The position numbers and the translations under genes were made by a program. Of a stretch of DNA of 50,738 nucleotides, positions 1,886 through 24,391 are shown piece by piece (the stretch's first letter is position 1; the number at the start of each line of letters is the position of its first letter). Source of the DNA: Chiloscyllium plagiosum (lineage: Eukaryota); assembly GCF_004010195.1 (NCBI RefSeq), contig NC_057718.1, positions 8,362,191 to 8,412,928 of the forward strand, in the 5' to 3' direction. The notes under the pieces were generated by a model. The model was not told where the DNA came from. It was given only the letters and a program-made list of their open reading frames with translations, and did no database searches.

Positions 1886-3454
1886 AAGTGATTTCTCTCC
1901 TTTTCCTTTCAAGAGTGAATTTACAGTGAGAAGGAAGTAGCTAGCTGCTCATGATTTTCTTTTACTCCTGCACTCACAGAAGAGAGACATTTTCTCCGTC
2001 ACAGGTTGGATCTAGTGTATTGTCAAAACACAAAGCTGTAGCTATTTGCCAGGCAACCAATGTAGGAGTTGTTACTAGCTAAGTATAGGTCGTGGTTGAA
2101 AAATCAATAAAAAAATCTGCTACTGGGCAAAACTGCATGGAAACACCTTGGCCTTCTGCCCAACTGCTTAAATAAGGCAACCTTCTAAATATGACACACA
2201 ATCAGTTCCAGGAGTGAGCTTTTTGTTTAAACTGTAACATCTTTTTCCACTAACGCTCAGGTTAAAACAGTATTTCTTCCATTTTCAAGTCCATAGTCCA
2301 AAAATATAAAAGCGATCTTACAGTATCATTAAATCACATTGTCAGGGATGGTCATGGAGGAATGATTGAAAGTACAAAATCTGATCCAGAATAGAAACCT
2401 TACAATAGTATAATGGCCAAAATAATTCAATGAATGTAATGAACTCCACATTTTTCTCCAAAGACAATGAATTTTATAGGTTTTAAAACTCTTTGATTAC
2501 AGTTAAATCAAGTGTGCAATGATATTTTATGTATTAAATCATGTCATTTTCATCTATGATTTACTGGAGGCTTTTTTAAATTTAAAAATGGCGACTACTC
2601 ACACTTTGTTTTAATTCAGTATATAAATTAACTTTCTTTTTTTTGAAGTTTCAAAAGTCAGTTTACACATTGACATTTCATGCTTTCACAGTATCAACTA
2701 GAATCAAAGTGAATATAGATATTCTGGTTTCAGCAAGGGATTAGGGACAGGACCGGACCTAAATCAAAGAGTCTGTTTATAGCAGCAGCACAGTAGCATT
2801 GATGTTTCAATCTGCTTTTAATCCAGACACAAAAATTATCTGAAGACTTCAGCTGATACTCTATTACAGCAGCTAAGGAACATGAAATCGTTTTACATGA
2901 AATTTAGAATACTATACACTGCTAGTGTCATTAATGGTAATCATAAAATAAGCAGATTGTCACATAAACCAATCCGATTCAATAATGTCATTTTTGGAAG
3001 GATATCTGCTTTTGGCTTAGCAAGCCACGCAGTTGCACACAATAGTTCACCACCACCATCTCAAGAATAAACTACAGGGAGCAATAAAAGCCAGCCTTGT
3101 CTGCGACACCAACATCATAACGATTAGAAAATATTTGGACAAATACGTGTGAATAGGAAAGGTTTGGAGTGATAATGGGCAAAATGCAGGCAGGTGACAT
3201 TAGTATGGTTCGGGAACATGGTTGGCATGTACTAATTGGACCAAAGGATCTGCTTCTGTGCTATCTGACTCTGATATTGTGTGAATGAAATATTTTTAGA
3301 AAGTAGAGTCTGTTTTACAGTAAAAGGCCTATTTAATCAAAGCCAGTACCAGTGACTTTAATTATGCACAAAACCACAACCAAAACTCCTGATTTAAAAA
3401 AGCAGAGCAATTTCTCCCATAAAATGCAGTGAGAACACGATTTAATAAATCCAT

Positions 3455-3790
3455 TTGCCTCAGTGTCATAAGGTTGTGTGTTTAAGTTCCATGCCACAGC
3501 CTTGAACATATTAGCTCAACTGACAGTCCAATGTAGTGTTGAGCAAGTGCTACAGCAGCAATGGCATCATCTGCCCTTTCAGCTGGACATTAAAAAGCCC
3601 ACAGTACTGTTAAAGAGAGGGGAGCTCACCAAAGGATTTCATTAAGATATTGTTGTGGCTTGCGGGAGTTTGGTGCGAATAAATTGACAGCTGTGTTTTC
3701 TACATTATAACAGTGACTACTCTTTCAAAACATGCTTATTAGTCGCAAAGCACTTTGCAAATGGTGAAATGCCCTGCCTAAGCGCAAGTT
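3455..3790 (+). mobile_element. Old DeuSINE-like SINE remnant
   Basis: Degenerate match, from memory of the family, to a Deu-domain/SacSINE-type body and 3' tail (..AAAGCACTTTG..GTGAAATGCCCTGCCTAAGCGCAAGT). Confidence 0.5.
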
Positions 3791-3802
3791 TTATTTTCTC
3801 CT

Positions 3803-4015
3803 AAAAACCAAAGAACTGCGGATGCTGGAAATCAAAAACAAAATCAGAAATTGCTGGAAAAGCTCAGCATATCTGGCAGCATCTGTGGACAGAAAGTAGA
3901 GTTAACATTTTGGGTACAGCAACGTTCTGAAGAAGTGTCACCATACCTGAAACGTAAACTCTGATTTCTCTCCATAGATGCTGCCAAACCTGCTGAGTTT
4001 TTCCAGCTACTTCTA
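3803..4015. repeat. Palindromic Penelope-tail-derived insertion
   Basis: Arm GCTGGAAAAGCTCAGC..TGGCAGCATCTGTGGA..AGAGTT is inverted to AACTCTG..TCCATAGATGCTGCCA..GCTGAGTTTTTCCAGC; decayed CTGAAGA..GAAACGT core; TSD-like TTTATTTTCT(C/T)CTAA flanks. Confidence 0.6.
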
Positions 4016-5900
4016 GTTATATTTATTTTCTTCTAAGTCCATTTTGTTTGTGGATTCTGAATATGTCTCTTAACAAATATTTCTATTTGAAGAAAAAAAT
4101 GCACAGGGTCAGAAAATCAAATTGCTCAGCTCTCCCAGTTGTCTCCAAGACGTCCTGAATCATTATTTTCAAACTCGAGCAAGTTCCATTGAAAAACACA
4201 TACTTTCATTGCCATCTGGTGATAGATTTGTGTAATTACATATAACAAAAATACAGTACACCATCATGCCTGATAAAACATACAATGAAAAGGATACTAA
4301 TGTTAATTCCAATTCAACAATCTTTTCTTTTTGATCAATGTTTGCCAGGCCATGGTGAATCATGACCAATGGCTATAATGTCTCAGACAGAATTTGCAAC
4401 AAGATTTTTCAAGCTAATTAACATATTCAAAACTGCTTTGTGAACGCAGTTAGTGTTCCAAGGCTCTTGACAGAGAAATCAATGCAAAGCATCAAAGAGA
4501 AATCAGGAGCACTGAGAAAAAGCATAGTTCAGAAAGCATCAAAAAACAGAATTATGCACAGCAATGTGGAGAGATCCAGGGAGAGATTTGCAGATTGGAT
4601 ATGCAAACAATAAAACTACAAAAATATATAGCAAACTGTCCAATAGTCTGTAGGATTGCTAGTCTATTAATATACTATTTCCTTCCATGCTGAGATATTT
4701 TCCCCACCTTCTAATCCCTCTGAAAGTGAGAGGGCTAATGACATCTTGCCTCTTTATACATCATGGTCACACTCCTTAAAAACTGCTGCTGGAATAAAAT
4801 CAAGACTTTGGATGTCTCTCTTTTCCAAGGCCAGCTCTGTGCTGCAACCCAGAACTGGAATTTCCATAAACCTTAACCCAAAATGAGTCTCTGTTTCTGT
4901 CTCCCCGATTTCACATGTTCCCCATGAACCACCCCACAATCCTCAGCAACACTCTCCCTGACGATCAGAAGGAGGCACATATGGAAGTGAAACGGTCTTT
5001 CCCGAGGTGTGAAAAAGCAATCATTATGTCACTTTCTATTCTGTGTGGACCATAAGTTGTAACAGATGCTGTTTAATTCATTGACCCATTAGTCATTCTG
5101 CAACACAGTATATTGGTAAACCATTCGACACTGAGTTTGACACCAGTGATTCACAGTATGAGTCATTCTCCCCACCATTCATCACAGGCTATCTGCTACA
5201 GCACACTGCATTTCCACTCATTAACATGGCCTGCAATCCTTTGTAAACATGCACTGGGGATACATTGCACGTAATTAGAACTTCTAATCAGCTAGTGAAA
5301 GCTAGTGCAATTATTTGAATTCAAATTGTAATCTGAAAGTCTGAAGGGTAACTTTTTCATGTTTGTCTTGCTATTGGTAAACCCCCTTTTATCAGCAACA
5401 ATTGAGACTGGGGCTCGCCTGGTTCAGTGTAATGACCCCAGGCAAGGCAGGCTTAGGCTCCAATCTCCATCTAATTCAGTGAATACTGGAAATTTGAAAT
5501 AAAAGCAAAAAGCACTGGAAAATCTCAGCAGGTCTGGCATCGGTAGAGAGAGAGATAAGAGTTAACAAAAACAGAAATTGCTGGAAAACACTGGTCAGCG
5601 AGCATGTATGAAGAGAAGGCAGAGTTAACATTTCTGGTCCATTGACCTTTCTTCAGGCACTGATTTTGAGAGTATGACGTGATTCTCTGTTCCAAGGAAT
5701 GGGAGAAAGAGAGACCAGTGAATAGTGGCATTCACGTGCCTGCACAGTGTTATATATTCTGCTTGAATCTGTGTGGATCACTTTTTCACTACGACAACTA
5801 CAGCTCAACATTTGGATCAACAGTCGACATTGAAGAGCTTGGAAGAACCTTGCAGATACCAAGATTTGGAGGTGCCGGGGTTGGACTTGAGTGTATAATG

Positions 5901-6632
5901 TTGAAAATCACACAATGCCAGATTATAGTCCAACAGGTTTATTTGGAAGCACTAGCTTTCGGAGCTCTGCTCCTTCATCAGGTGGTTGTCGAGTATAAGA
6001 TTGTAAGTCACAGAATTTATGGCAAAAGTTTACAGTGTGATGTAACTGAAATTATATATCAAAAAAGACCTGGATTGTTTGTTAAGTCTCGCATCTTTTA
6101 GAATGAACAGGTTGGCTTCAGTTCTTTCATATGTAAATTGCAAAACCTTTTTGAAGTTACATTTTCAAGTGAACTTTAACAACTGATGTCATGTCAGCCC
6201 AGATAATGTATTTAAGGTATGACGTGCATCTGTAAATCCACTTTTTAGATTAGAATCAGTCTGACCATTGTGGCATAGACAGTCTCATACAGGGCACCTC
6301 ACACCTTAAATACATTATCTGGGCTGACATGACACCTATTGTTAAAGTTCACTTGAGAATGGAACTTTAAAAAAGTTCTGGGACTTACATATGAAAGAAT
6401 TGAAACCAGCATGGTCATTCTAAAAGATGAGAGACTTAAACAATCCATGTCTTTTTCAATATATAATTTCAGTTAAGAATCACACAACACTAGGTTATAG
6501 TCCAACAGGTTTAATTGGAGGCACTAGCTTTCAGAGCACTGCAGGTGGTTGATGATGAAGGAGCGGCACTCCGAAAGCTAGTGCTTCCAATTAAACCTGT
6601 TGGACTATAACCTGGTGTTGTGTGATTTTTAA
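5901..6632. repeat. Stacked inverted repeats of a Penelope-derived family with hammerhead cores
   Basis: ~190-bp arms 6042-6234 and 6288-6474 are reverse complements; second hairpin 6473-6632; hammerhead core on the minus strand at 5950-5984. Confidence 0.7.
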
Positions 6633-7067
6633 TCTCGCAGATACGACAAGCACCAGTTAAACAGGGATTCTTAAAATCCTACTCAGAATGATGCTCTTCA
6701 CGAAATGAATAATCAATTTTTTTTAAAACAATTTATATTTTCCTGTTTATATTCTTAATGCAATAGTAGTATTATTTAATTGTGTGCAATTAATTATGCT
6801 CAAATTGGGTTGCTGAGCTGAAATTATCACATAGGTTACATGTGTTACCCAACAAAGTAATGGGGATGAACAATGTGCATCAAAGCAAATCTATGGCTTC
6901 AGCCCAACTTCACACAGAATGTGAAGCAACCTATATATAAAATATGCCTCTATGACAGGTGCCAAGAACATAATTCTTACAGCTTATTTGCGCTGTCTAA
7001 TCCCTAGCAGTAAATATACCCCTGTTCAATTTGATATTATCAGAAGGACCACCTTTCAAATGAGATG

Positions 7068-7716
7068 TGTAAAAATATAGCTTACTTGTAAATTAGAAGG
7101 CTGGCTGCGAGTGTAAATGTTTTCGGCATTCGGAAGTCTGTGGTGATGCTGTTTAATGCGCGCAGAAGGGGGTCACGTGACGTTCCGTTTCGCACCCTGG
7201 AAGAGTGCGAGGCGGACACGTGACGTTCCGTTTCGCGCCCTGGAAGAGTGCGAGGCGGACACGTGACGTTCCGTTTCGCGCCCTGGAAGAGTGCGAGGAG
7301 GTCACATGATGCTCCGTTTCGTGGGTGAGGGGATCACGTGATGCTCCGTTTCGCGGGCAAAAGAAGGTCACGTGGGGTTGGACATCCGGGAATGCGAGGA
7401 GGCGGAGAATGGAGTCAAATCAACAGCCAAGCAGAAGATAATTCCACCTCAGTGATTGTATGACATTTTTTTATGGTATAAAAGACTGGCTCAGGGACAG
7501 GAATATGTCTTACTTTTTGAACTGGCACACTTTGTAGTTTGTCAGGGACAAAAAGGTTTAGACCCAGAGCTTGGAATGCTTTATCCGCTTACTGTTTAAA
7601 ATAAATTAAGAGTGTGAGACCGAATATCATCTCCTATTGCTTCATTTAAAAGAACACGCAGGACTTGGCTCACACATAGAAGAAAGTAAGTTGGTAGATT
7701 GAGCCAAAGTCCGTCA
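7068..7716 (+). repeat. 5' LTR (649 bp)
   Basis: Starts TGTAAAAATAT, ends GTCCGTCA; direct repeat of 13755-14384; TATAAAA 7477-7483; AATAAA 7600-7605. Confidence 0.95.
7171..7376 (+). promoter_or_regulatory. U3 enhancer tandem repeats (three 43-bp units plus 32-34 bp units) with E-box and E2F-like sites
   Basis: CACGTG/CACATG at 7174, 7217, 7260, 7303, 7335, 7369; TTTCGCGC or close variants in the units. Confidence 0.75.
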
Positions 7717-7719
7717 AAT

Positions 7720-7737
7720 TGGTGACCCCGACGTGAT
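7720..7737 (+). promoter_or_regulatory. Primer-binding site, tRNA-Trp
   Basis: TGGTGACCCCGACGTGAT, 3 nt after the 5' LTR; complementary to the 3' 18 nt of vertebrate tRNA-Trp (the same PBS as avian sarcoma/leukosis viruses). Confidence 0.92.
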
Positions 7738-8364
7738 GAAGACGGAGAAGTGACGGAAAAGAGAGAAAAATAGAAACAACGGACAACTGACGTCTGATTA
7801 CAACAACAAGCGGCGCCGCATAAAAAAGATGAGCAGACGCCTGTTTATATCGAAGTTCTGCAATTGGAAATACTAAATTGATTGTTGTCATTATACTGCA
7901 AGTGTCCTAGTAATAGTAAGTGGATAAAGTATTGATATAGTACGTACAGGTTTAAAGTCCCTTGGGGTTAGAGTCCCCATAAAAGCAACAAGGTACGTAA
8001 ATGTGAGGAGGTTTAAAGTCCATTGAGCAGGATCTCATAAAAGCAACGCTCACAAATTGTGGTGTGTGATTGTGTGGTATGTTTTAAAACTTATATTGGG
8101 GAATGTACGGAGGGTGGCAGAAAAGCCAGTAGTGTCTTGAAGACAGAGACGGTGGTGTTTCAGTGAGAGAGAGTTGGCAGTGGAAACCTAATGGTGACAA
8201 CGAAACTGCTGATAAATCTCGCTGAAAGGGTCAGTTGCTCGGGTGTACTCCATCCAAACTGACTACCCACCGGATTTGTCTCTGATTGGGCTGGTTGCTC
8301 GGTTATATTTATATCCAAAGCAACTGACTACTGGACGGGAGGATTAAAAACAAAAATACATAAA

Positions 8365-10211
8365 ATGGAAGGGGAGTTTGATAAAGAGTTTGAAGAATAC
8401 GGAGGATGGTCTTCCGATTTAATGTTGCCCGTAAAACAGCAGTGGGGTAAAGCCAGAAGTCAGTTAGTCAGTGGGCTTGCAAAGAACAAACAAAAAACAA
8501 CGATGGAGAAATATGATAAGATTTGGGAAGAATTACAAAAACAGGGCAAAGTCCCTAAAGATGAGGAGAGGAAGAAATTGTCACCGTTTTTAGGAAAAGC
8601 AGAAGAGCAAGCTAAATTAGAAGTTGAAGAGCACACGAAAGGGTCAATATTAGTTAGAAGAAAGTGGACAAAAGGCGGGGAGAAAGAGGAGAGGAGGATT
8701 TATCTGCACAACATGACGTTAGCCTGTATGGCGGCAGAAACATTACAAAAGAGAGTAGGTGGTATGTCTATAATAGAACTGACAAAGGAGACAAAAAATG
8801 CAGGACCATCTGTGCCATTATATCCTAAATTGCCTGTGGTACAATCACCGCCCCCATATCCGTAATACAAATGCCACTTATGCATGTTCAAGAAGGGGTG
8901 TTAGATGTGCAAGAAGTAGGAACAAGAGAGTACAACGTAGTAAAACAGAGACTGGCAGAAGCAGTAGAAGAAAGTATCAGAAAAGTAGAAAAACTAACAC
9001 TAGAAGCTGAACAGAGAGTTAAGGAAGCAGAGGAAGCAAGCAGGGTGATAGTGACACACAGCAGAAACAAAGAACAGCCAAAACAGGGGGGATATTCATC
9101 AGTGGAAGAGCCAGATGCTCATTCGACACCGTATAGTGCTGGGAATGAAAAGAGGGGAAGATTACATGATTCAGGTCAGTTATTGGATGATGGGTTCTTA
9201 GAGAGAAGGAGAGATTTGAGGGAAGAACGGGATAGAGAGAAATTGGATGGGGAGGAGTCTAAAAGTAGTATAGATATTGAGGACGAAAAATCCCTGACAG
9301 ACGATGATCCAAACACCTACCCAGTCACTTTGAAAGGCTCACTCACAATGCATACCGAACATGGCCCTCCACTGAAGCCCCTACCTGAACCAAGTTACAA
9401 CCTGTGTCAAAGAGACACATTACAACAACCTATAAAGTATCAGCACGACCAAATGCCATGAACTGCATCCTGGATAAAATGCCCCCACCCATGGAGGGAG
9501 GTGGGTCCTGGATGACTAAATTTTCCCAATATACACTAGGCCACAAATTAGCTATGGGCGACTGGAGAGCATTGTTGGGTAAGCAATTGAGTATGTGGGA
9601 AATACAGCAGATTGAAGCGTCTGCTGGGACCACCTTATTACCTGATTCGGACCCATTTGCGCAGGATGCCACCTGGGTGGGAAGGGCAATGAGGGATAGA
9701 TTTCCGATTCCACCGGGAGCGATGCACTCACTCACCTTCACAATGAAGGAGGGTGAGGATGTGCCTGCCTTTTGGCTAGGTGTAAGGGCACGTGGACAGA
9801 TACTGCGGGGAGCCATCCAGAGTCGGGTCAGCTACAGACCACGTTATTTAGGAATGCCGTTATGGCAGGGATGCCCAAGGAGGTAAAAGAGGCAATGGAG
9901 AGTAATCCTGATATCCCAGGTTGTTCTACAGAACAGTGGGAGAAACACTTGACGCACCACATGAAGCGTTACAGGACGAAACAGGATGAAGATAAACAGA
10001 GCAACGAGTCAGCTCAAGTGCAGTTGCTGAAGTTACAGCTCGATGAGGCTAGAAGGGAGGCCAAGGATTGATCAGAGGACAGTATGTCCGCTCAAGTCAG
10101 CCTCCTTTTCAACAGGTTCCTCAACTTTACCAAGCCCCAAATGTAGCTGCAGCCCCGGTGCAAGGACAGTACACCCAGACTATCCCGAAAGGGCAGGGGT
10201 ACGAATATTGA
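8365..10211 (+). pseudogene. gag: gag (frameshifted and deleted)
   Basis: ORF pieces 8365-8865, 8871-9461, ~9458-9780, 9772-10071 and a Q/P-rich tail ending at TGA 10209-10211; PLYPKL and PPPY motifs; capsid-like PPPMEGGGSW..F and LFRNAVMAGMP; no intact CCHC knuckle. Confidence 0.85.
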
Positions 10212-10600
10212 CGGGGCCTGAGAATCCAGGGGCATGTGGAGTTGGCAGACCCCTATATGCAAATGAGGGTAATGGACAAGAATCTGTCTTTTTTGGTTGA
10301 CACGGGTGCAAGATTTTCTACCATCACTTGTGATATACCTCGGTCAAATATATCATCCTCCAGCGTCCAGTTAGTAGGGTTCTTGGGTAAACCAAAAAAT
10401 CTGCCTTTGACATCGCCACTGATCACATCAGTGGCTGGACAGACCTTTTGTCACCAGTATATTTCATCACCTGCATGCCCTGTGAATCTGATGGGTCGTG
10501 ACTTGCTAGTGAGATGTGGGGTCTCGGTTTTGTGCGGACCCGACGGACTGGTAGTGACCTTTCCAAATGGCCAATCCGTTAACTGTTCTATGACAATGAT
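10212..10600 (+). pseudogene. pro: Retroviral aspartic protease
   Basis: LSFLVDTGARFSTI (DTG at 10299-10307) and CPVNLMGRDLL; in frame with the gag TGA. Confidence 0.9.
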
Positions 10601-10654
10601 TCACTCTGGATCCCAAATGATGCTATCACCAGACACATCACCCATGGCAGAAGG

Positions 10655-11144
10655 GCAGTGGGCAGATATATACTGGGGACTCCTCGAACCCGAAAACAGG
10701 CAGAACAACGGTATGCAGTTTTTACACAACCAATGGCGACCCTGGGTTCAGATGCTGCATCCCTATGCTCCTCCTGCAGATCCCCTTCATATTACCTTAT
10801 ATTATGATAGAGATGATAATGAAATTTATCAAATGCATTCTATCAGCATCTAGAAGGGACTCAATGGAAATTTCCTCCAGTTGGATTCTGCTCAGAAAAG
10901 AAGGTGTGGCGTGTGTTGTTGAATTAACTGCAGAACAGTTGGAATGGTATGAGATGTCTGAAGAAGCTATACCTCATGTCACATTGGCCATGCATGCTGA
11001 ATATCAGGCCAAGGATCTGGGACCTATGTCCAAACGCTTGATGGTGCTAGTGGACTGGGTGTGGACTCAGCTACCCGGTTTACAATATTCACCATCGGAG
11101 GAAGCCTATAGAATTATGTGCAGGACAACTGACAAGGTACTGCT
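10655..11144 (+). pseudogene. Putative 2H phosphoesterase (PDE/CNPase-like) domain within pol
   Basis: Two H-x-T-hydrophobic motifs, PLHITLYY (His 10788) and IPHVTLAM (His 10975), ~63 codons apart after correcting frameshifts; located between PR and RT. Confidence 0.65.
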
Positions 11145-11523
11145 NNNNNNNNNNNNNNNNNNNNNNNNNNNNNNNNNNNNNNNNNNNNNNNNNNNNNNNN
11201 NNNNNNNNNNNNNNNNNNNNNNNNNNNNNNNNNNNNNNNNNNNNNNNNNNNNNNNNNNNNNNNNNNNNNNNNNNNNNNNNNNNNNNNNNNNNNNNNNNNN
11301 NNNNNNNNNNNNNNNNNNNNNNNNNNNNNNNNNNNNNNNNNNNNNNNNNNNNNNNNNNNNNNNNNNNNNNNNNNNNNNNNNNNNNNNNNNNNNNNNNNNN
11401 NNNNNNNNNNNNNNNNNNNNNNNNNNNNNNNNNNNNNNNNNNNNNNNNNNNNNNNNNNNNNNNNNNNNNNNNNNNNNNNNNNNNNNNNNNNNNNNNNNNN
11501 NNNNNNNNNNNNNNNNNNNNNNN

Positions 11524-12240
11524 ATCACATTCGATTTAATAGACCACACTCTGATTTGGCAGAGACAATACTCACATAAACCAGAGGCTGAAGCCGGCAT
11601 TGCCGACACAATTGAAGGATTGTTAGCAGCAGGGGTGCTAGAACCCTACCAGTCAGCCTGGAACACTCCTATCTTACCTGTAGAGAAGCAGAATACAGGT
11701 AAATATAGGATGGCCCATGATCTTAGACGGATCAATAGTGTCGTTTCTACTCCAACAGTTCCAGTTCCAAACCCTTACACTGCGATGTCTGTGCTGACCC
11801 CTGACCATAAGTGGTTCTCGTGCATTGATCTGGCCAACGTGTTCTTCTGTTTGCCCCTAGCTGATCATCTGAGGGACATTTTTTCGTTCACCTACAAAGG
11901 CCAACAACTACATTATACAAGGGTCCCTCAAGGGTTTATTTTGTCGCCTGGGGTGTCTAATCAGGTACTGAAACAGCAGCTGAAGGATCTGACGCTCCCA
12001 AAGGGAGTGGTATTGATCCAGTATGTGGATGACATTCTTTTGGCGCACCTGATCATGTTTCTTGTTTGGCAGCCACAAAGTCGTTGCTGTTTCACCTGTA
12101 TAGTGTCGGTAAATTGCAATGCTGCAGACAAACGGTGTCTTTTCTGGGTAGAGTTATTTCTGCTAAGGGAACAGGTGTGTCTCCGTCTCATAGACCCTCC
12201 ATTCCATTCTGCATCATACCAAACCAGTCACTGTAAAAGA
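11524..12240 (+). pseudogene. pol: Reverse transcriptase (N-terminus in assembly gap, frameshift near 12046)
   Basis: WNTPILPV, YRMAHDLRRIN, WFSCIDLANVFF, PQGFILSPG, YVDD at 12022-12033. Confidence 0.95.
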
Positions 12241-12241
12241 C

Positions 12242-13249
12242 ATGCTCTCATTTCTTGGGTTGGCAGGATACAGTAGACAATTCATTGCATCATATGGGGA
12301 GCTCACTTTTCCTCTCAGGGCCATGGTAAATGAGCAAGGCATGAGAAATTTGTCGGCCCATTTGCAGTGGACTACGGAGGCAGACGAAAGTTTCATATCT
12401 CTTAAACAGGCTTTAACACGGGCTGCTGATTTAGCGGTCCCGGATTACAAAGAGCCATTTTTCCTCCTTATTTCTGAAAAATTACACACAATAAATGGTG
12501 TTCTTTTTCAGAAAAAAGGGTGAGGCAGGCAGGTGCTGATGGATGTAAGTGTGACCCTTGACCCAGTAGAGGACAGACACCCGCCATGTACAAGACATGC
12601 AGCAGGGGTAGCAAAAATTCTTCAAAAGGTAGCACATATAGTCAAGGGCCATTCACTAACAGTACTGACGACACACAGTATAGTGGCCTATGTGAACTCA
12701 ACAGCCTTTATGAACTCAACAGCCTTTACAATGACGTCACTGCGGCAAACCAGGTTAGAGAAAATCTTGAATGCAGCACATATAATTTTTACATATGAAG
12801 GAATTAACATGGCTGATAACATGGGAGAAGGAGAGCCACACGTGTGTGAGGAAAGGGTACAGAGAGATACCAAAGTTAGGGCAGATTTACAGGCAATTCC
12901 ACTAGTAGACCCAGAAGAAGTGCTGTTCACAGATGGTTGCTGTTATAGACATCCAACTGAAGGACTTAAAGCAGCCTATGTAGTGGTGCGACAGGCAAGT
13001 AAGGGATTTGAGGAAGTGTTGACAGGAAAAGTGACAGGCAAAGAATCAGCCCAGTTGGCTGAACTACAGGCAATGATAGCTGCGTTAGAATGGTCAGAGG
13101 GAAAAAGAGTAAATATCTACACCGACTCTGCATATGTGGCAGGGGCTATACAGGTAGAACTCAGTCAATGGATCAGGGCAGGATTCTTAACAGCAGCAAA
13201 AACCTCAATTAAACATGAAAAAGATATGAAAAGATTAGCGGAGGCCCTA
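12242..13249 (+). pseudogene. pol: RT thumb/tether and RNase H (C-terminally truncated)
   Basis: FLGLAGYSRQFI, LAVPDYKEPFFL, VLFTDG (12926-), SAQLAELQA, VNIYTDSAY; in-frame stop at 12521-12523. Confidence 0.9.
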
Positions 13250-13592
13250 CCCTTTGCTTTACTGTCCATTAGAAGTTCAGTAAACTCTATCACAGGGTTC
13301 ATTCCGTATGAGCAAACAACAGGGCAGCAGTTCCCGGGACCAGGAGCTGGAATACAGATCTTAGAGGGAGGAGGAGCCTCTCTAAGGTACAAACCTTACT
13401 ATGACCAACTAACAGCTCTGGTGTCAGCTTTCTCCAAACAGGTTGGATCGGAAAAGGGGTAAACTACAGACCCAGACGCCATCTACCACAGATTGGGTCC
13501 TGTTGAAAGTGATCAAACGGAAATGGTCGGAGCCAAGGTGGACAGGACCTTATAAGGTGGTGGAGACATCCCATGTGGTTAGACTGCAGGGG
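13250..13592 (+). pseudogene. pol: Integrase C-terminal remnant
   Basis: PFALLSIRSSVNSITGFIPYE (post-core helix) and DWVLLKVIKRKWSEPRWTGPYKV (GPY motif); HHCC and DDE core absent. Confidence 0.85.
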
Positions 13593-13706
13593 GTAATTAT
13601 CACAGCAATTGAAGCGAAGGCTCCCCAGCCCTCACAGATGGAGATGGAAACCATGGCTTTGGCAAGAAGGGAAGACAATGCGTCGGAGAGTGAATGTGAT
13701 GTATAG
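13593..13706 (+). pseudogene. env: Probable env cytoplasmic-tail remnant fused to integrase C-terminus
   Basis: VIITAIEAKAPQPSQM..ESECDV* directly before the PPT, at the position where env ends; resembles, from memory, the tail of fish ERV Env. Confidence 0.5.
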
Positions 13707-13736
13707 AACTGGTTGATTGGTTGGTCTCATTTTTAT

Positions 13737-13754
13737 GAGACCAAAAGGGGGACT
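13737..13754 (+). promoter_or_regulatory. Polypurine tract
   Basis: GAGACCAAAAGGGGGACT immediately before the TG of the 3' LTR. Confidence 0.85.
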
Positions 13755-14384
13755 TGTAAAAATATGGCTTACTTGTAAAATAGAAGGCTGGCTGCGAGTG
13801 TAAATGTGTTCGGCGTTCGGAAGTCTGTGGTGATGCTGTTTAATGCACGCAGAAGGGGTCACATTTCGAGCCCCGGAAGAGTGCGAGGCAGTCACGTAAC
13901 GTTCCGTTTCGCGCCCTGGAAGAGTGAGAGGAGGTCACGTGATGCTCCGTTTCGCGCCCTGGAAGAGTGCGAGGAGGTCACGTGATGCTCCGTTTCGCGG
14001 GTGAGGAGATCACATGATGCTCCGTTTCGCGGGCAAAAGAATGTCACGTGGGGTTGGACATCCGGGAATGCGAGGAGGCGGAGAATGGAGTCAGATCAAC
14101 AGCCAAGCAGAAGATAATTCCACCTCAGTGATTGTATGACATTTTTTATGGTATAAAAGACTGGCTCAGGGACAGGAATACGTCTTACTTTTTGAACTGG
14201 CACACTTTGTAGTTTGTCAGGGACAAAAAGGTTTAGAACCAGAGCTCTGAATGCTTTAACAATTTACTGTTTAAAATAAATTGAGAGTGCGAGACCGAAT
14301 ATCATCTCCTATTGCTTCATTTAAAAGAACACGCAGGACTTGGCTCACACATAGAAGAAACTAAGATTGAGCCAAAGTCCGACA
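13755..14384 (+). repeat. 3' LTR (630 bp)
   Basis: TGTAAAAATAT..GTCCGACA followed by GATG; TATAAAA 14152-14158; AATAAA 14275-14280. Confidence 0.95.
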
Positions 14385-16279
14385 GATGTTAAAGTGAGGT
14401 TCCCCTCTGGTAGTTCTAGTGGGAATAAAAATAATTCTACAGCATTATTCATGGAAGTTCTGTCCAACATATGTCCATATGATTAGACAGAAAAGAGACT
14501 GGACAATCCATTCAGTCCATTCTTGCTACACTGCAAACAAGGAATATGGCCTCCGACTACTCTAGAGCCACCAGCAGCTATCCCATTACCCGTGAGGTAA
14601 AAAGCACTTAAGGAGAGCGAGCCTCATTCAGGAAGAGAGAATACTGGAAAAGTATGCTGTGGGTCAACTTCTCACCTACCTTTTGTACAGTGTGATGTCA
14701 GCAGGTTCCTGGTACAAGCTGCTCTCTTTTGACTGCTTTGAAACAAATCCATAGCATCAGCCAGCAGCCTATTACTAAAATCAGCGAACTGAGAATTCAT
14801 AAAAACCTCCCAATGTCTAACCTATGTACGCCAACTTGTTCACCGCAACTGATTCGCTTCAAATACTTCATGTGTACATGTGTGGGGAGATGGTGACTAA
14901 AGGCAATGTCACTGGCCTAGTAATCCAGAAGCTCTGCATATGTGGGTTTATATCCAACAATGGCAGTTGGAGGAATTTTAATTCATTGGGTAAAATCTTG
15001 AATTGAAAGCTAGTCTCAGCCACGGTGATCATGAAACAATAACAGATTGTTGTGAAAACGTAACTGAATTCACTTACTGTTCTTCAGGAAGAGAAACCTG
15101 CCATCTTTACTCATCTTGGCCTACATGTCATTCCAGATTCACAGCAATAATGTTTTACTGGTCTCTGAAATGGCTGAGGAAAGCCACTCAGTCTAAGGGC
15201 AATGAGGGATTGGCACCTACATCTCATTAAAGAGCACTTTAAAAAAAAGTTACTTTAAATATTCAAAACAAATTGCTATGAAATCTATATAACTTGTATT
15301 ACTCTATGACTCTAACTTCCTGAATCTATTGTAATTGCTGAGGATGTTTAGGTCAAGCAATGATTTGGAGACTCTCTAAAGTTCTGAAGGTTTCCATATC
15401 ACTCAATCTGAGTAACCCAGAACAGGGGACACTGTCCGAGATGGGGCCCAATCAAAATCTTGTACAGGGACAGGAGTGTTCCTTGTTCCGTCTTGCCCTA
15501 AGTCATCTAATAACCAACACGTTGGCCTCTCAGAATTGGCTTTGGATCTTTCGAGACTTGAACACTGTGACACCAGGGCATCTTTCCCTCTCAACTGAAT
15601 TCAACTTAGAGTTCGACATATTGTTCTATACTTGCTATTAGTGTGATCACAATGTTGCATACTATGCTTATCATTTAACAGTAATTGCTGTTACTCATTT
15701 ACTCAATGCAATTTGATCAGATTTCAACATAACTATAAACTTGCTGACCAAACAAAATCCTTCAATCCAAATCACTGATGCCTTTGGTGAGGAGTAACAG
15801 TCCTAATACTGATCTCTGCATGAATATACAGTTCCACCATTAAATGGCAGTGCTCTGTCCCTGAAAGAACACCAGCTGTGTGCAAAGGTTGTCTACATAT
15901 CAACTGTGGCTACATTTCAAAAGTAGTTTGTAGGCTGTGGGTAACACTGTGCTACTTCCTGAACAATGAAAGGTACAAGTATTTTTTTTCTGCTTGTGTC
16001 TCTATCACCTATAGTCAGTGTGCAGGCTATCAGGTGCTCCAGATGTGTTTACCTGCCCATCAAGGCACTTTCAGGCCACTGTGGACCAACGGTTAAGAGT
16101 TGACAAGTTGATCTATGTACAGTAGCTCACACATGACAACTGGAATCATGTCCATACCATGTGCACATTATGATTGAGCATAAAGTTTGGCAAAAAACAG
16201 CAATGTGAAATGATGGGGGAAGCTAGTGCTGACTTGGTGAGATGGCTGGCATCGGTTTCTTGTAGAGGACAACACACTA

Positions 16280-23111: not shown

Positions 23112-24391
23112 CAGGTCGTTCTGCTATAATGTACATTTCCCATCCTGCCCCCTGTATCTACTACAAACCAACCGACTCCCACAGCTACCTGGACTACACC
23201 TCCTCCCATCCTGCCCCCTGTAAAAACGCCATCCCATTCTCCCAATTCCTTCGTCTCCGCCGCATCTGCTCCAGGAGGACCAGTTCAAAATACGTACAAC
23301 ACAGATGGCCTCCTTCTTCAAGGACCGCAATTTCCCCCCCCGACGTGGTCGNNNNNNNNNNNNNNNNNNNNNNNNNNNNNNNNNNNNNNNNNNNNNNNNN
23401 NNNNNNNNNNNNNNNNNNNNNNNNNNNNNNNNNNNNNNNNNNNNNNNNNNNNNNNNNNNNNNNNNNNNNNNNNNNNNNNNNNNNNNNNNNNNNNNNCTTT
23501 GGTTGGAGGGTTCCCAGTCGGAAGATAAGACGCTCCTCCTCCGACCGTCGGGTTGTTGTGGTTTGGCGGTGGATGAGTCCAATGACCTGCATATCCTCGG
23601 TGGAGTGGGAGGGGGAGTTGAAATGCTGTGCTACAGGTTGGTTGGGTTGGTTCGTCCGGGTGGCCCAGAGGTGCTCTCTGAATCGCTCCGCAAGTAGGCG
23701 GCCTGTCTCCCCAATATAGAGGAGGCCACACCGGCTGCAGCGGCTGCAGTAGATGATGTGGGTGGAGGTGCAGGTGAATCTGTGGCGGATATGGAAGTTT
23801 GCTCTGGGGTTTGGAGAGAAGTGATGGGGGAGGTGTGGGCGCAAGTGTTGCACCTCCTGCGGTTGCAAGGGAAGGTGCCGGGAGTGGAGGTTGGGTCGGT
23901 GGGGGGTGTGGATCTGACAAGGCAGTTGTCTCAGCCGGATCCCTCCAGCCCGGCACCGCTTCCTGACCTGCAGTCTTCTTCTTGACCTCTCTGCCTCCAT
24001 CCTACTCCGACCTATCACCCTCACCTTGACCTCTTTCCACCTATCACATTTCCAACGCCCCTCCTCCAAGTCCCTCCTCCCTACCTTTTATCTTCTCCTG
24101 CTGAACACTCTCTGCTCATTCCTGAAGAAGGGCCTGTGCCCGAAACGTCGAATCTCCTGTTCCCTGGATGCAGACCTCACTTTCTCCTATAATGTACATT
24201 TCCTCAACGCAAATTTGCTGTAATGCCATTGAAGAATTGGGGGCGCTATCGGTAAAGTGTGAACTTGTAAATCATGTGTTGACTGTAATACAAATGCAAC
24301 ATCAACATTTAAGAGGTGTTTCTAAAACACGATTTTTCTATGAAGCGGGTTGCACAAGAGTGCAACCATTGTGTTATAGAAGAACTGACTA
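23112..24391. mobile_element. MITE (same TIR family as 16280) split by a Penelope insertion
   Basis: Left TIR CAGGTCGTTCTGCTATAA at 23112; right TIR GTGTTATAGAAGAACTGAC at ~24371-24389. Confidence 0.7.
23141..24186. mobile_element. 5'-truncated Penelope-like element with internally inverted GIY-YIG segment
   Basis: RT thumb YKPTDSHSYLDYTSSHP..AIPFSQFLRLRRICS on +; GIY-YIG IIYCSRCSRCGLLYIGETGRLLAERFREH on - (23496-23925); 3' tail with hammerhead on +; 17-bp TSD CTATAATGTACATTTCC at 23124-23140 and 24187-24203. Confidence 0.88.

Follow-up and report, generated by a model that had tools for sequence, protein, structure and literature searches.

Positions 7068-14384 of the window (the whole stretch of 50,738 nucleotides analysed here) are occupied by a decayed class I (gamma/epsilon-like) endogenous retrovirus (ERV) of the shark Chiloscyllium plagiosum. 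The hallmarks of this class are present, namely long terminal repeats (LTRs), a target-site duplication, a primer-binding site, a polypurine tract and the order gag-pro-pol-env, with the place of env being read from a fuller copy elsewhere in the genome (L051) and the window copy retaining the env tail only. The features of the locus are as follows.

7064..7067, + strand: left target-site duplication, GATG; found again directly after the 3' LTR
7068..7716, + strand: 5' LTR, starting with TG and ending with CA (repeat families; ends read directly)
7720..7737, + strand: primer-binding site, complementary to the 3' end of the host tRNA-Trp
8263..10071, + strand: gag-like region, spread over several broken frames (ORF pieces)
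10248..10526, + strand: retroviral aspartyl protease (Pfam RVP, E 6.2e-10)
10659..11144, + strand: predicted CNPase-like 2H phosphoesterase domain (fold and homology taken from open paralogues)
11145..11523, no strand: run of 379 Ns that hides the C-terminal end of the domain, its linker and the first part of the reverse transcriptase
11524..12273, + strand: reverse transcriptase, RT (Pfam RVT_1, E 1e-16; tblastn pieces in three frames)
12203..13249, + strand: RT connection and RNase H (Pfam RT_RNaseH_2, RT_RNaseH and RNase_H, E 2.6e-19; tblastn to residues 575-917 of ERV protein P0002)
13241..13592, + strand: C-terminal part of the integrase (weak Pfam match to MLVIN_C)
13593..13706, + strand: remnant of the C-terminal tail of env (matches the end of the env-like ORF of the fuller copy, 3719-4138)
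13743..13752, + strand: polypurine tract, just 5' of the 3' LTR (direct reading)
13755..14384, + strand: 3' LTR (repeat families; LTR-LTR alignment)
14385..14388, + strand: right target-site duplication, GATG (direct reading)

When compared by blastn, the 5' LTR and positions 13755-14369 are 92.8% identical over 627 columns (32 mismatches, 8 gap openings), a divergence which, with an assumed substitution rate, suggests an age on the order of ten million years. The complement of the primer-binding site is the terminus of a tRNA-Trp(CCA) gene of the same genome. Within the gag-like region, positions 8365-9041 resemble the pre-protease N-terminal part of a teleost protein (P0004; tblastn), and the region as a whole (8263-10071) gave zero Pfam matches. 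Farther along the element, Pfam places RVP, RVT_1, RT_RNaseH_2, RNase_H and the weak MLVIN_C in this order. The RVP match comprises residues 13-105 of the ORF starting at 10212, with the D of the DTG motif at 10299, and the RT, which has MLV and XMRV as its best relatives of solved structure, changes frame near 12040 and 12203. A deletion junction near 13245 marks the loss of ~294 residues (the end of RNase H as well as the zinc finger and the catalytic core of the integrase), and residues 918-1211 of P0002 have no counterpart in the window copy (tblastn). A further deletion of ~2 kb fuses the env tail to the integrase. With two large deletions, breaks in gag and RT and the two frame breaks in the domain described below, the window provirus is dead.

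An ERV family devoid of env was considered, as pol in the window almost reaches the 3' LTR, and rejected: the fuller copy (on contig C13) possesses a gamma-type env-like ORF, and the window copy is merely deleted. The env-like region of that copy extends over ~2 kb (2390-4138) between pol and the 3' LTR, exhibits a CX6CC motif as well as a weak match to TLV_coat (E 0.0019), and is split by stops into three ORFs. As side observations on the window, each LTR (7167-7357; 13864-14033) yields offset self-matches of ~70-150 bases at 78-89% identity, that is, short tandem repeats (blastn); a direct repeat of 71 bases with 86% identity (5900-5970 and 6472-6542) upstream of the provirus is possibly a short interspersed element; and a second N run of 145 bases is located at 23352-23496.

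It is the stretch between protease and RT to which the sequence-only reading had drawn attention, claiming at least ~160 extra codons, two H-x-T-hydrophobic motifs with histidines at 10788 and 10975 that are ~63 residues apart, and two 1-nt deletions near 10832 and 10870. These claims were all borne out. Both DPLHITLYYD and AIPHVTLAMH are found in ORF translations: the ORF starting at 10212, which encodes the protease, ends in ...DPLHITLYYDRDDNEIYQ, and another frame holds ...AIPHVTLAMH.... The His codons occupy positions 10788-10790 (HITL, motif 1) and 10975-10977 (HVTL, motif 2). When aligned at the DNA level with four other genomic copies, the window copy is one base short at ~10833 and again at ~10870, so that the domain passes through three frames; contigs from other sequencing runs likewise contain the additional base at both places. 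The extra stretch comprises ~165-225 residues, varying with the RT start that is chosen (in one open copy, RVP ends at residue 105 and RVT_1 begins at residue 412, and the RT chains of MLV/XMRV begin aligning at profile position 311-334). Position 11144 is the last base before the N run, and the last strand of the domain and its linker to the RT are hidden in the window copy.

The N run itself (11145-11523) spans 379 bases, yet tblastn fits only 46 residues (~140 bases) of P0002 into it, and open copies have ~50 residues at its place. The copy may have an insertion here, or the Ns may stand for a gap or for masking, with an arbitrary length; many of the other copies that were fetched contain such runs too, with 75-1173 Ns each. 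In contigs of run X3, which comes from another organism, a joined form skips ~620 bases corresponding to window positions 10294-10919, at a high depth (233). The skip begins around the active site of the protease and ends midway through the 2H domain, and the joined form is probably a deleted, amplified derivative of the ERV family. The runs that yielded contigs are three in number and presumed to be RNA; a single-cell polyA RNA run, sampled at ~6 in 100 raw reads, had 0 reads on the stretch.

The window locus itself is ordinary: the 3.56-Gb genome holds at least 150 copies, of which it is one decayed example. This lower bound was obtained with the 91-residue C-terminal half of the insert as the query, which gave 150 scored matches out of 279 candidates. 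Both motifs lie in a single uninterrupted frame in 20 of the 30 best loci fetched, and in 19 of these 20 open copies the histidines are spaced by 63 residues, the remaining copy having a short deletion. One copy (L017, on contig C1) is open over 811 residues from the protease through the insert into the RT, and its insert served for all folds and searches, no frame repair being needed; the protease active site of this copy reads DKG, that of other copies DTG. Since some copies are open from protease through insert into RT, the domain would, to judge from their reading frames, be made within Gag-Pro-Pol, as had been proposed from the window alone. Two more ERV lineages of the same genome carry the insert after the protease, and before the RT where the frame reaches the RT. 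One of them is ~38% identical and has motifs HVTL and HVTL (loci L031-L036), the other ~32% identical with HCTV and HVTL (L037-L046).

The sequence-only reading had further proposed that pol encodes a 2H phosphoesterase fold, and on this the predicted structure, two structural comparisons (Foldseek and VIA-align) and profile-profile alignment with hhalign agree. An AlphaFold2 model of the naturally open copy, built from a natural alignment of 18 rows, has a mean pLDDT of 84.3 and a pTM of 0.75, with ten-residue blocks between residues 60 and 190 reaching pLDDT values of 93-98. Foldseek returned 51 matches in the PDB with E <= 1e-3 (best E 3.6e-7, probability 1.00), and the 41 of these 51 that were listed are all catalytic domains of CNPase (mouse, human, rat) or goldfish RICH. 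VIA-align ranks mouse and human CNPase first (Z 17.5-16.1; r.m.s.d. 2.6-3.3 over 164-169 residues, and 2.7 over 165 residues for the Z of 17.5), followed by goldfish RICH (Z 13.7) and a fungal tRNA-ligase entry (6u05; Z 12.1). Among the matches listed, other 2H families score no higher than 8.6, namely a bacterial cyclic phosphodiesterase (5h7e; 8.6), Usb1 (8.1), and then archaeal and Thermus LigT-like proteins, LigT and MHV ns2 (4z5v) with Z 7.9-7.7. The best 50 VIA-align matches listed are all 2H enzymes, with AKAP7 and VP3 absent among these 50. Models of phage Acb1 in BFVD match weakly (E 5e-3 to 5e-2; TM ~0.3), and a feature search of the ESM Atlas gave tRNA_lig_CPD and 2H-SAK as the nearest named clusters (score 0.96-0.94).

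The profile comparison is consistent with this ranking. Aligned by hhalign against 118 CNPase catalytic domains, a 25-row alignment of the retroviral domain gave a probability of 93.3% and an E of 2.7e-7 (the CNPase profile comprises 118 of the 120 CNPases listed, trimmed to the catalytic domain, the two that failed a two-motif filter having been dropped). Motif 1 falls on HCTT and motif 2 on HITL of CNPase, and an invariant tyrosine located five places after the first His aligns with CNPase F235. The reversed alignment, used as a control, gave a probability of 0.14% and an E of 0.43. The host's own CNPase gene (C33:12173127-12183471, loci L047-L049) has the motifs HCTT and HITL, and its last matched exon is 100% identical to the bamboo-shark CNPase record; against a single exon of this gene, hhalign yields a probability of 27%, which is weak by itself. 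Hence, on the strength of the predicted model and the profiles, we put the probability that the insert adopts the two-lobed alpha+beta fold of 2H phosphoesterases and is akin to CNPase at roughly 90%, and identify the catalytic domain of vertebrate CNPase as its nearest known relative.

Conventional sequence searches, for their part, came back empty. Pfam has no family on the insert at E <= 10 in the open copy and none on the pieces of the window, and a genome-wide scan with its CNPase model (PF05881) recovers the host gene (contig C33) and no ERV insert. A phmmer search of PDB sequences with the domain gave a dynein chain alone (E 0.016), which was taken as chance. The best hmmsearch match of the domain-only alignment in the PDB is unrelated (E 0.3), a penguinpox cGAMP phosphodiesterase appears there at E 1.5 on the motif alone, and with the full-length alignment RT matches drown the insert. 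Together with the broken state of the window copy, these results are what one would expect if the motifs were coincidental, or if the insert were a piece of host sequence that does nothing for the virus. The confident predicted fold with its specific match points the other way, as do two further observations presented in the following, that is, a conservation equal to that of the protease from sharks to teleosts and a fixed site between protease and RT. The conservation data bring the notion of chance or a useless passenger close to refutation, and we regard it as extremely improbable.

As to conservation, all 25 aligned rows, which represent three shark ERV lineages as well as teleosts, have the first His, and 24 of them have the second. 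In a larger set, and among the matches listed, 126 of the 132 proteins that cover both motifs have both histidines, and 117 have H-x-T/S twice; the motifs are thus kept among relatives, where their absence would have spoken against the assignment. (This set arose from 166 proteins, comprising 150 listed representatives and 18 earlier matches with two shared, of which 34 are fragments missing one motif.) Pairwise identities among seven teleost pols average 0.456 for the protease, 0.486 for the domain and 0.633 for the RT. The identity of the insert is therefore on a par with that of the protease, which indicates a constraint like that on an essential viral enzyme.

The domain is also widespread. 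A profile search of 1.84 billion representative proteins yielded 478 clusters with E <= 1e-3, 270 of them with E <= 1e-10 and 92 with E <= 1e-30. When 26 long matches were scanned with Pfam, 25 had retroviral pol domains and none had a Pfam family over the insert, and in all ten long relatives with both RVP and RVT_1 the domain is located between the two. In one protein (P0181), the insert follows an RT; this protein looks composite. Named relatives come from a second bamboo shark (91% identity), an electric ray (62%), a stingray (31-33%) and many teleosts, all of them annotated as 'uncharacterized' or 'hypothetical' proteins. A search of IMG/VR viral contigs gave 20 pattern matches, with zero confirmed. 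In the window, the RT segment 11524-12045 shares 82-83% identity across 174 residues with two ERV proteins (P0002, P0004), one of which comes from a remora, the sharksucker Echeneis naucrates. This is far above the identity that the age of the shark-teleost split allows, and points to cross-class transmission of the retrovirus lineage. The ERV family is abundant and cross-class among fishes, and the window element is a decayed member of it.

It is then tempting to speculate how the domain arose and what it does. We suggest that an ancestral fish retrovirus may have captured the catalytic domain of a host CNPase-like gene, leaving behind the kinase-like N-terminus and the membrane anchor. Being translated within Gag-Pro-Pol, the domain would enter every particle beside the other pol enzymes, and the viral protease would probably set it free. 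Its two histidines would open a 2',3'-cyclic phosphate to yield a 2'-phosphate and a free 3'-OH in the manner of CNPase and of the cyclic phosphodiesterase (CPD) domain of tRNA ligases, the latter of which opens 2',3'-cyclic phosphate ends of RNA to the same two products. As the target we would favour RNA 3' ends (of the genome, the primer tRNA or fragments) left cyclic by metal-independent RNases of the host, with free 2',3'-cyclic nucleotides being the alternative. More speculatively, the virus could benefit from such a healed 3'-OH, on its genome, primer or fragments, when priming and copying RNA. The domain is likely to be catalytically active in a living virus. As its substrate we lean, with some reserve, towards a 2',3'-cyclic phosphate and not towards an immune messenger. 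A shared fold does not fix the substrate, however, and there are 2H enzymes with these very motifs that cleave 2',5'-oligoadenylate or cyclic dinucleotides.

The domain could conceivably act on just such messengers. Coronavirus NS2, rotavirus VP3-CTD, AKAP7, poxvirus cGAMP phosphodiesterases and phage Acb1 all degrade molecules of this kind, and a retroviral enzyme that destroys 2',5'-oligoadenylate, 2'3'-cGAMP or another cyclic oligonucleotide would blunt the sensing of an incoming or budding retrovirus. The superfamily fold and the two catalytic motifs are the same; MHV ns2 (Z 7.7) and the Acb1 models (E 5e-3 to 5e-2) are among the weaker structural matches; and delivery as part of pol would presumably place the enzyme in the cell at the time when reverse-transcribed DNA can be sensed. 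However, the CNPase branch scores Z 17.5 when compared with ~8 for ns2 and LigT, and the profile similarity likewise points to CNPase. Teleosts are moreover reported to lack OAS genes, so that most hosts would contain no 2-5A to destroy. We thus consider it unlikely that the domain serves as a phosphodiesterase of immune messengers. The likeness to NS2, VP3-CTD and Acb1 that had been noted from the sequence holds at the level of the superfamily, whereas the closest relative is CNPase (Z 17.5, against 7.7 for MHV ns2 and E >= 5e-3 for Acb1).

Alternatively, the active site may have been kept for binding, with a non-enzymatic CNPase-like body binding RNA or Gag, or serving as a decoy against a CNP-like restriction factor of the host. 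According to a passage in PMC10761555, mammalian CNP is an interferon-stimulated gene, and its CNP1 isoform antagonises the assembly of HIV-1 particles; a viral copy of the domain could conceivably interfere with an antiviral factor of this type. However, this antagonism is described for mammalian CNP, and both His and both Thr/Ser are kept in 117 of 132 proteins (among the matches listed); the aromatic residue that aligns with F235 is retained as well. Such near-universal retention argues that catalysis is demanded, and not mere binding. Hence, a purely non-enzymatic role appears improbable, and catalysis on a 2',3'-cyclic phosphate is the reading that we carry forward.

What has been found, then, is a probable host-derived enzyme that has long been retained inside the replication polyprotein of widespread fish retroviruses and is conserved like the viral protease. 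Current annotation misses it, with the relatives being 'uncharacterized' and Pfam having no family that covers the domain. As sharks, rays and teleosts now provide hundreds of natural variants, it has become possible to test what its substrate is.

The systems to which the domain can be compared are CNPase and its structural relatives, the 2H proteins that counter innate immunity, and fish retroviruses already known to encode similar sequences. With CNPase and RICH it shares both H-x-T motifs in register and a similar domain size, and these are its best structural matches by a wide margin. In contrast to CNPase, to which it is ~15% identical and whose Pfam model (PF05881) misses it, the retroviral domain lacks the kinase-like N-terminal domain and the C-terminal membrane anchor, and has the protease before it and the RT after it; in host CNPases, Pfam finds both PF13671 and PF05881. 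Its histidines are 63 residues apart, compared with 79-84 in CNPase, the loop before motif 2 being shorter, and the retroviral domain has no equivalent of CNPase R307, the arginine two residues ahead of the second His. The CPD of fungal and plant tRNA ligases (PF08302) resembles the domain as the second-best structural family (6u05) and through the nearest named clusters of the ESM Atlas, but is part of a ligase-kinase-CPD enzyme, whereas the retroviral domain has neither a ligase nor a kinase partner. With coronavirus NS2, rotavirus VP3-CTD and AKAP7 it has the superfamily and the catalytic motifs in common. These belong to a different branch of the superfamily (Z 7.7 for MHV ns2), the viral ones counter innate immunity, and nothing in the shark data indicates 2-5A.

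CNPase-like sequences have been described in fish ERVs before. In a passage of Naville and Volff 2016 (PMC4977317), Basta et al. 2009 are credited with teleost epsilon-like ERVs that encode a CNPase. Like the shark element, these are class I ERVs of fishes that contain a CNPase-like coding sequence. Their CNPase very probably belongs to the same domain family as the shark insert, given that the search for relatives of this insert led to teleost ERV pols. The same passage speaks of 'additional open reading frames' in teleost ERVs, as opposed to the in-frame pol domain of the shark element, and leaves sharks and rays unmentioned. In the text of Han 2015 on elephant shark ERVs the word 'phosphodiesterase' is absent, and in a zebrafish ERV survey (PMC8672886) neither 'phosphodiesterase' nor 'CNP' occurs. 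The literature searched, which omits most subscription papers, yielded no mention of the domain in sharks and no functional study of it.

Exogenous fish retroviruses provide the other precedent. According to a passage in Iyer et al. 2022 (PMC9503650), it was Mazumder et al. 2002 who described a 2H domain in two viruses of the walleye, namely the dermal sarcoma virus and the epidermal hyperplasia virus. In BFVD, the best viral match to our model is a 1072-residue piece (Q2VF30_1; E 3.8e-15, TM 0.74 on the query, 28% identity) that probably stems from a retroviral pol carrying this insert, and the walleye viruses are matched as well (walleye epidermal hyperplasia virus 1, E 2.2e-10; walleye dermal sarcoma virus, E 1e-9; probability 1.00 for both). 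These walleye entries differ from the shark domain in being 16-17% identical to it and in being named Envelope polyprotein (Q9WHI8, A4GTG3), by which name the 2H body there seemingly resides in Env and not in pol. That the domain is located in pol here but in Env in the walleye viruses suggests that its activity was selected for more than once. One may go further and imagine that fish retroviruses acquired a CNPase-type enzyme at least twice (once in the pol of shark, ray and teleost viruses and once in the Env of walleye viruses), meeting a host defence that acts through 2',3'-cyclic phosphate chemistry or through the interferon-induced CNP of the host itself. We offer this as a conjecture about which we are rather doubtful ourselves. 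If it were true, the virus-borne CNPase would constitute a dedicated counter-defence delivered in the particle, and the natural substrate of the viral enzyme would reveal the purpose of CNPase itself, which to our knowledge is still unsettled. By the passages cited above, a CNPase of teleost ERVs was thus already known, and so was a 2H domain of walleye retroviruses. When compared with these, the novelty of the present finding is modest, and consists in the new hosts, the clear structural assignment and the contrast between pol and Env.
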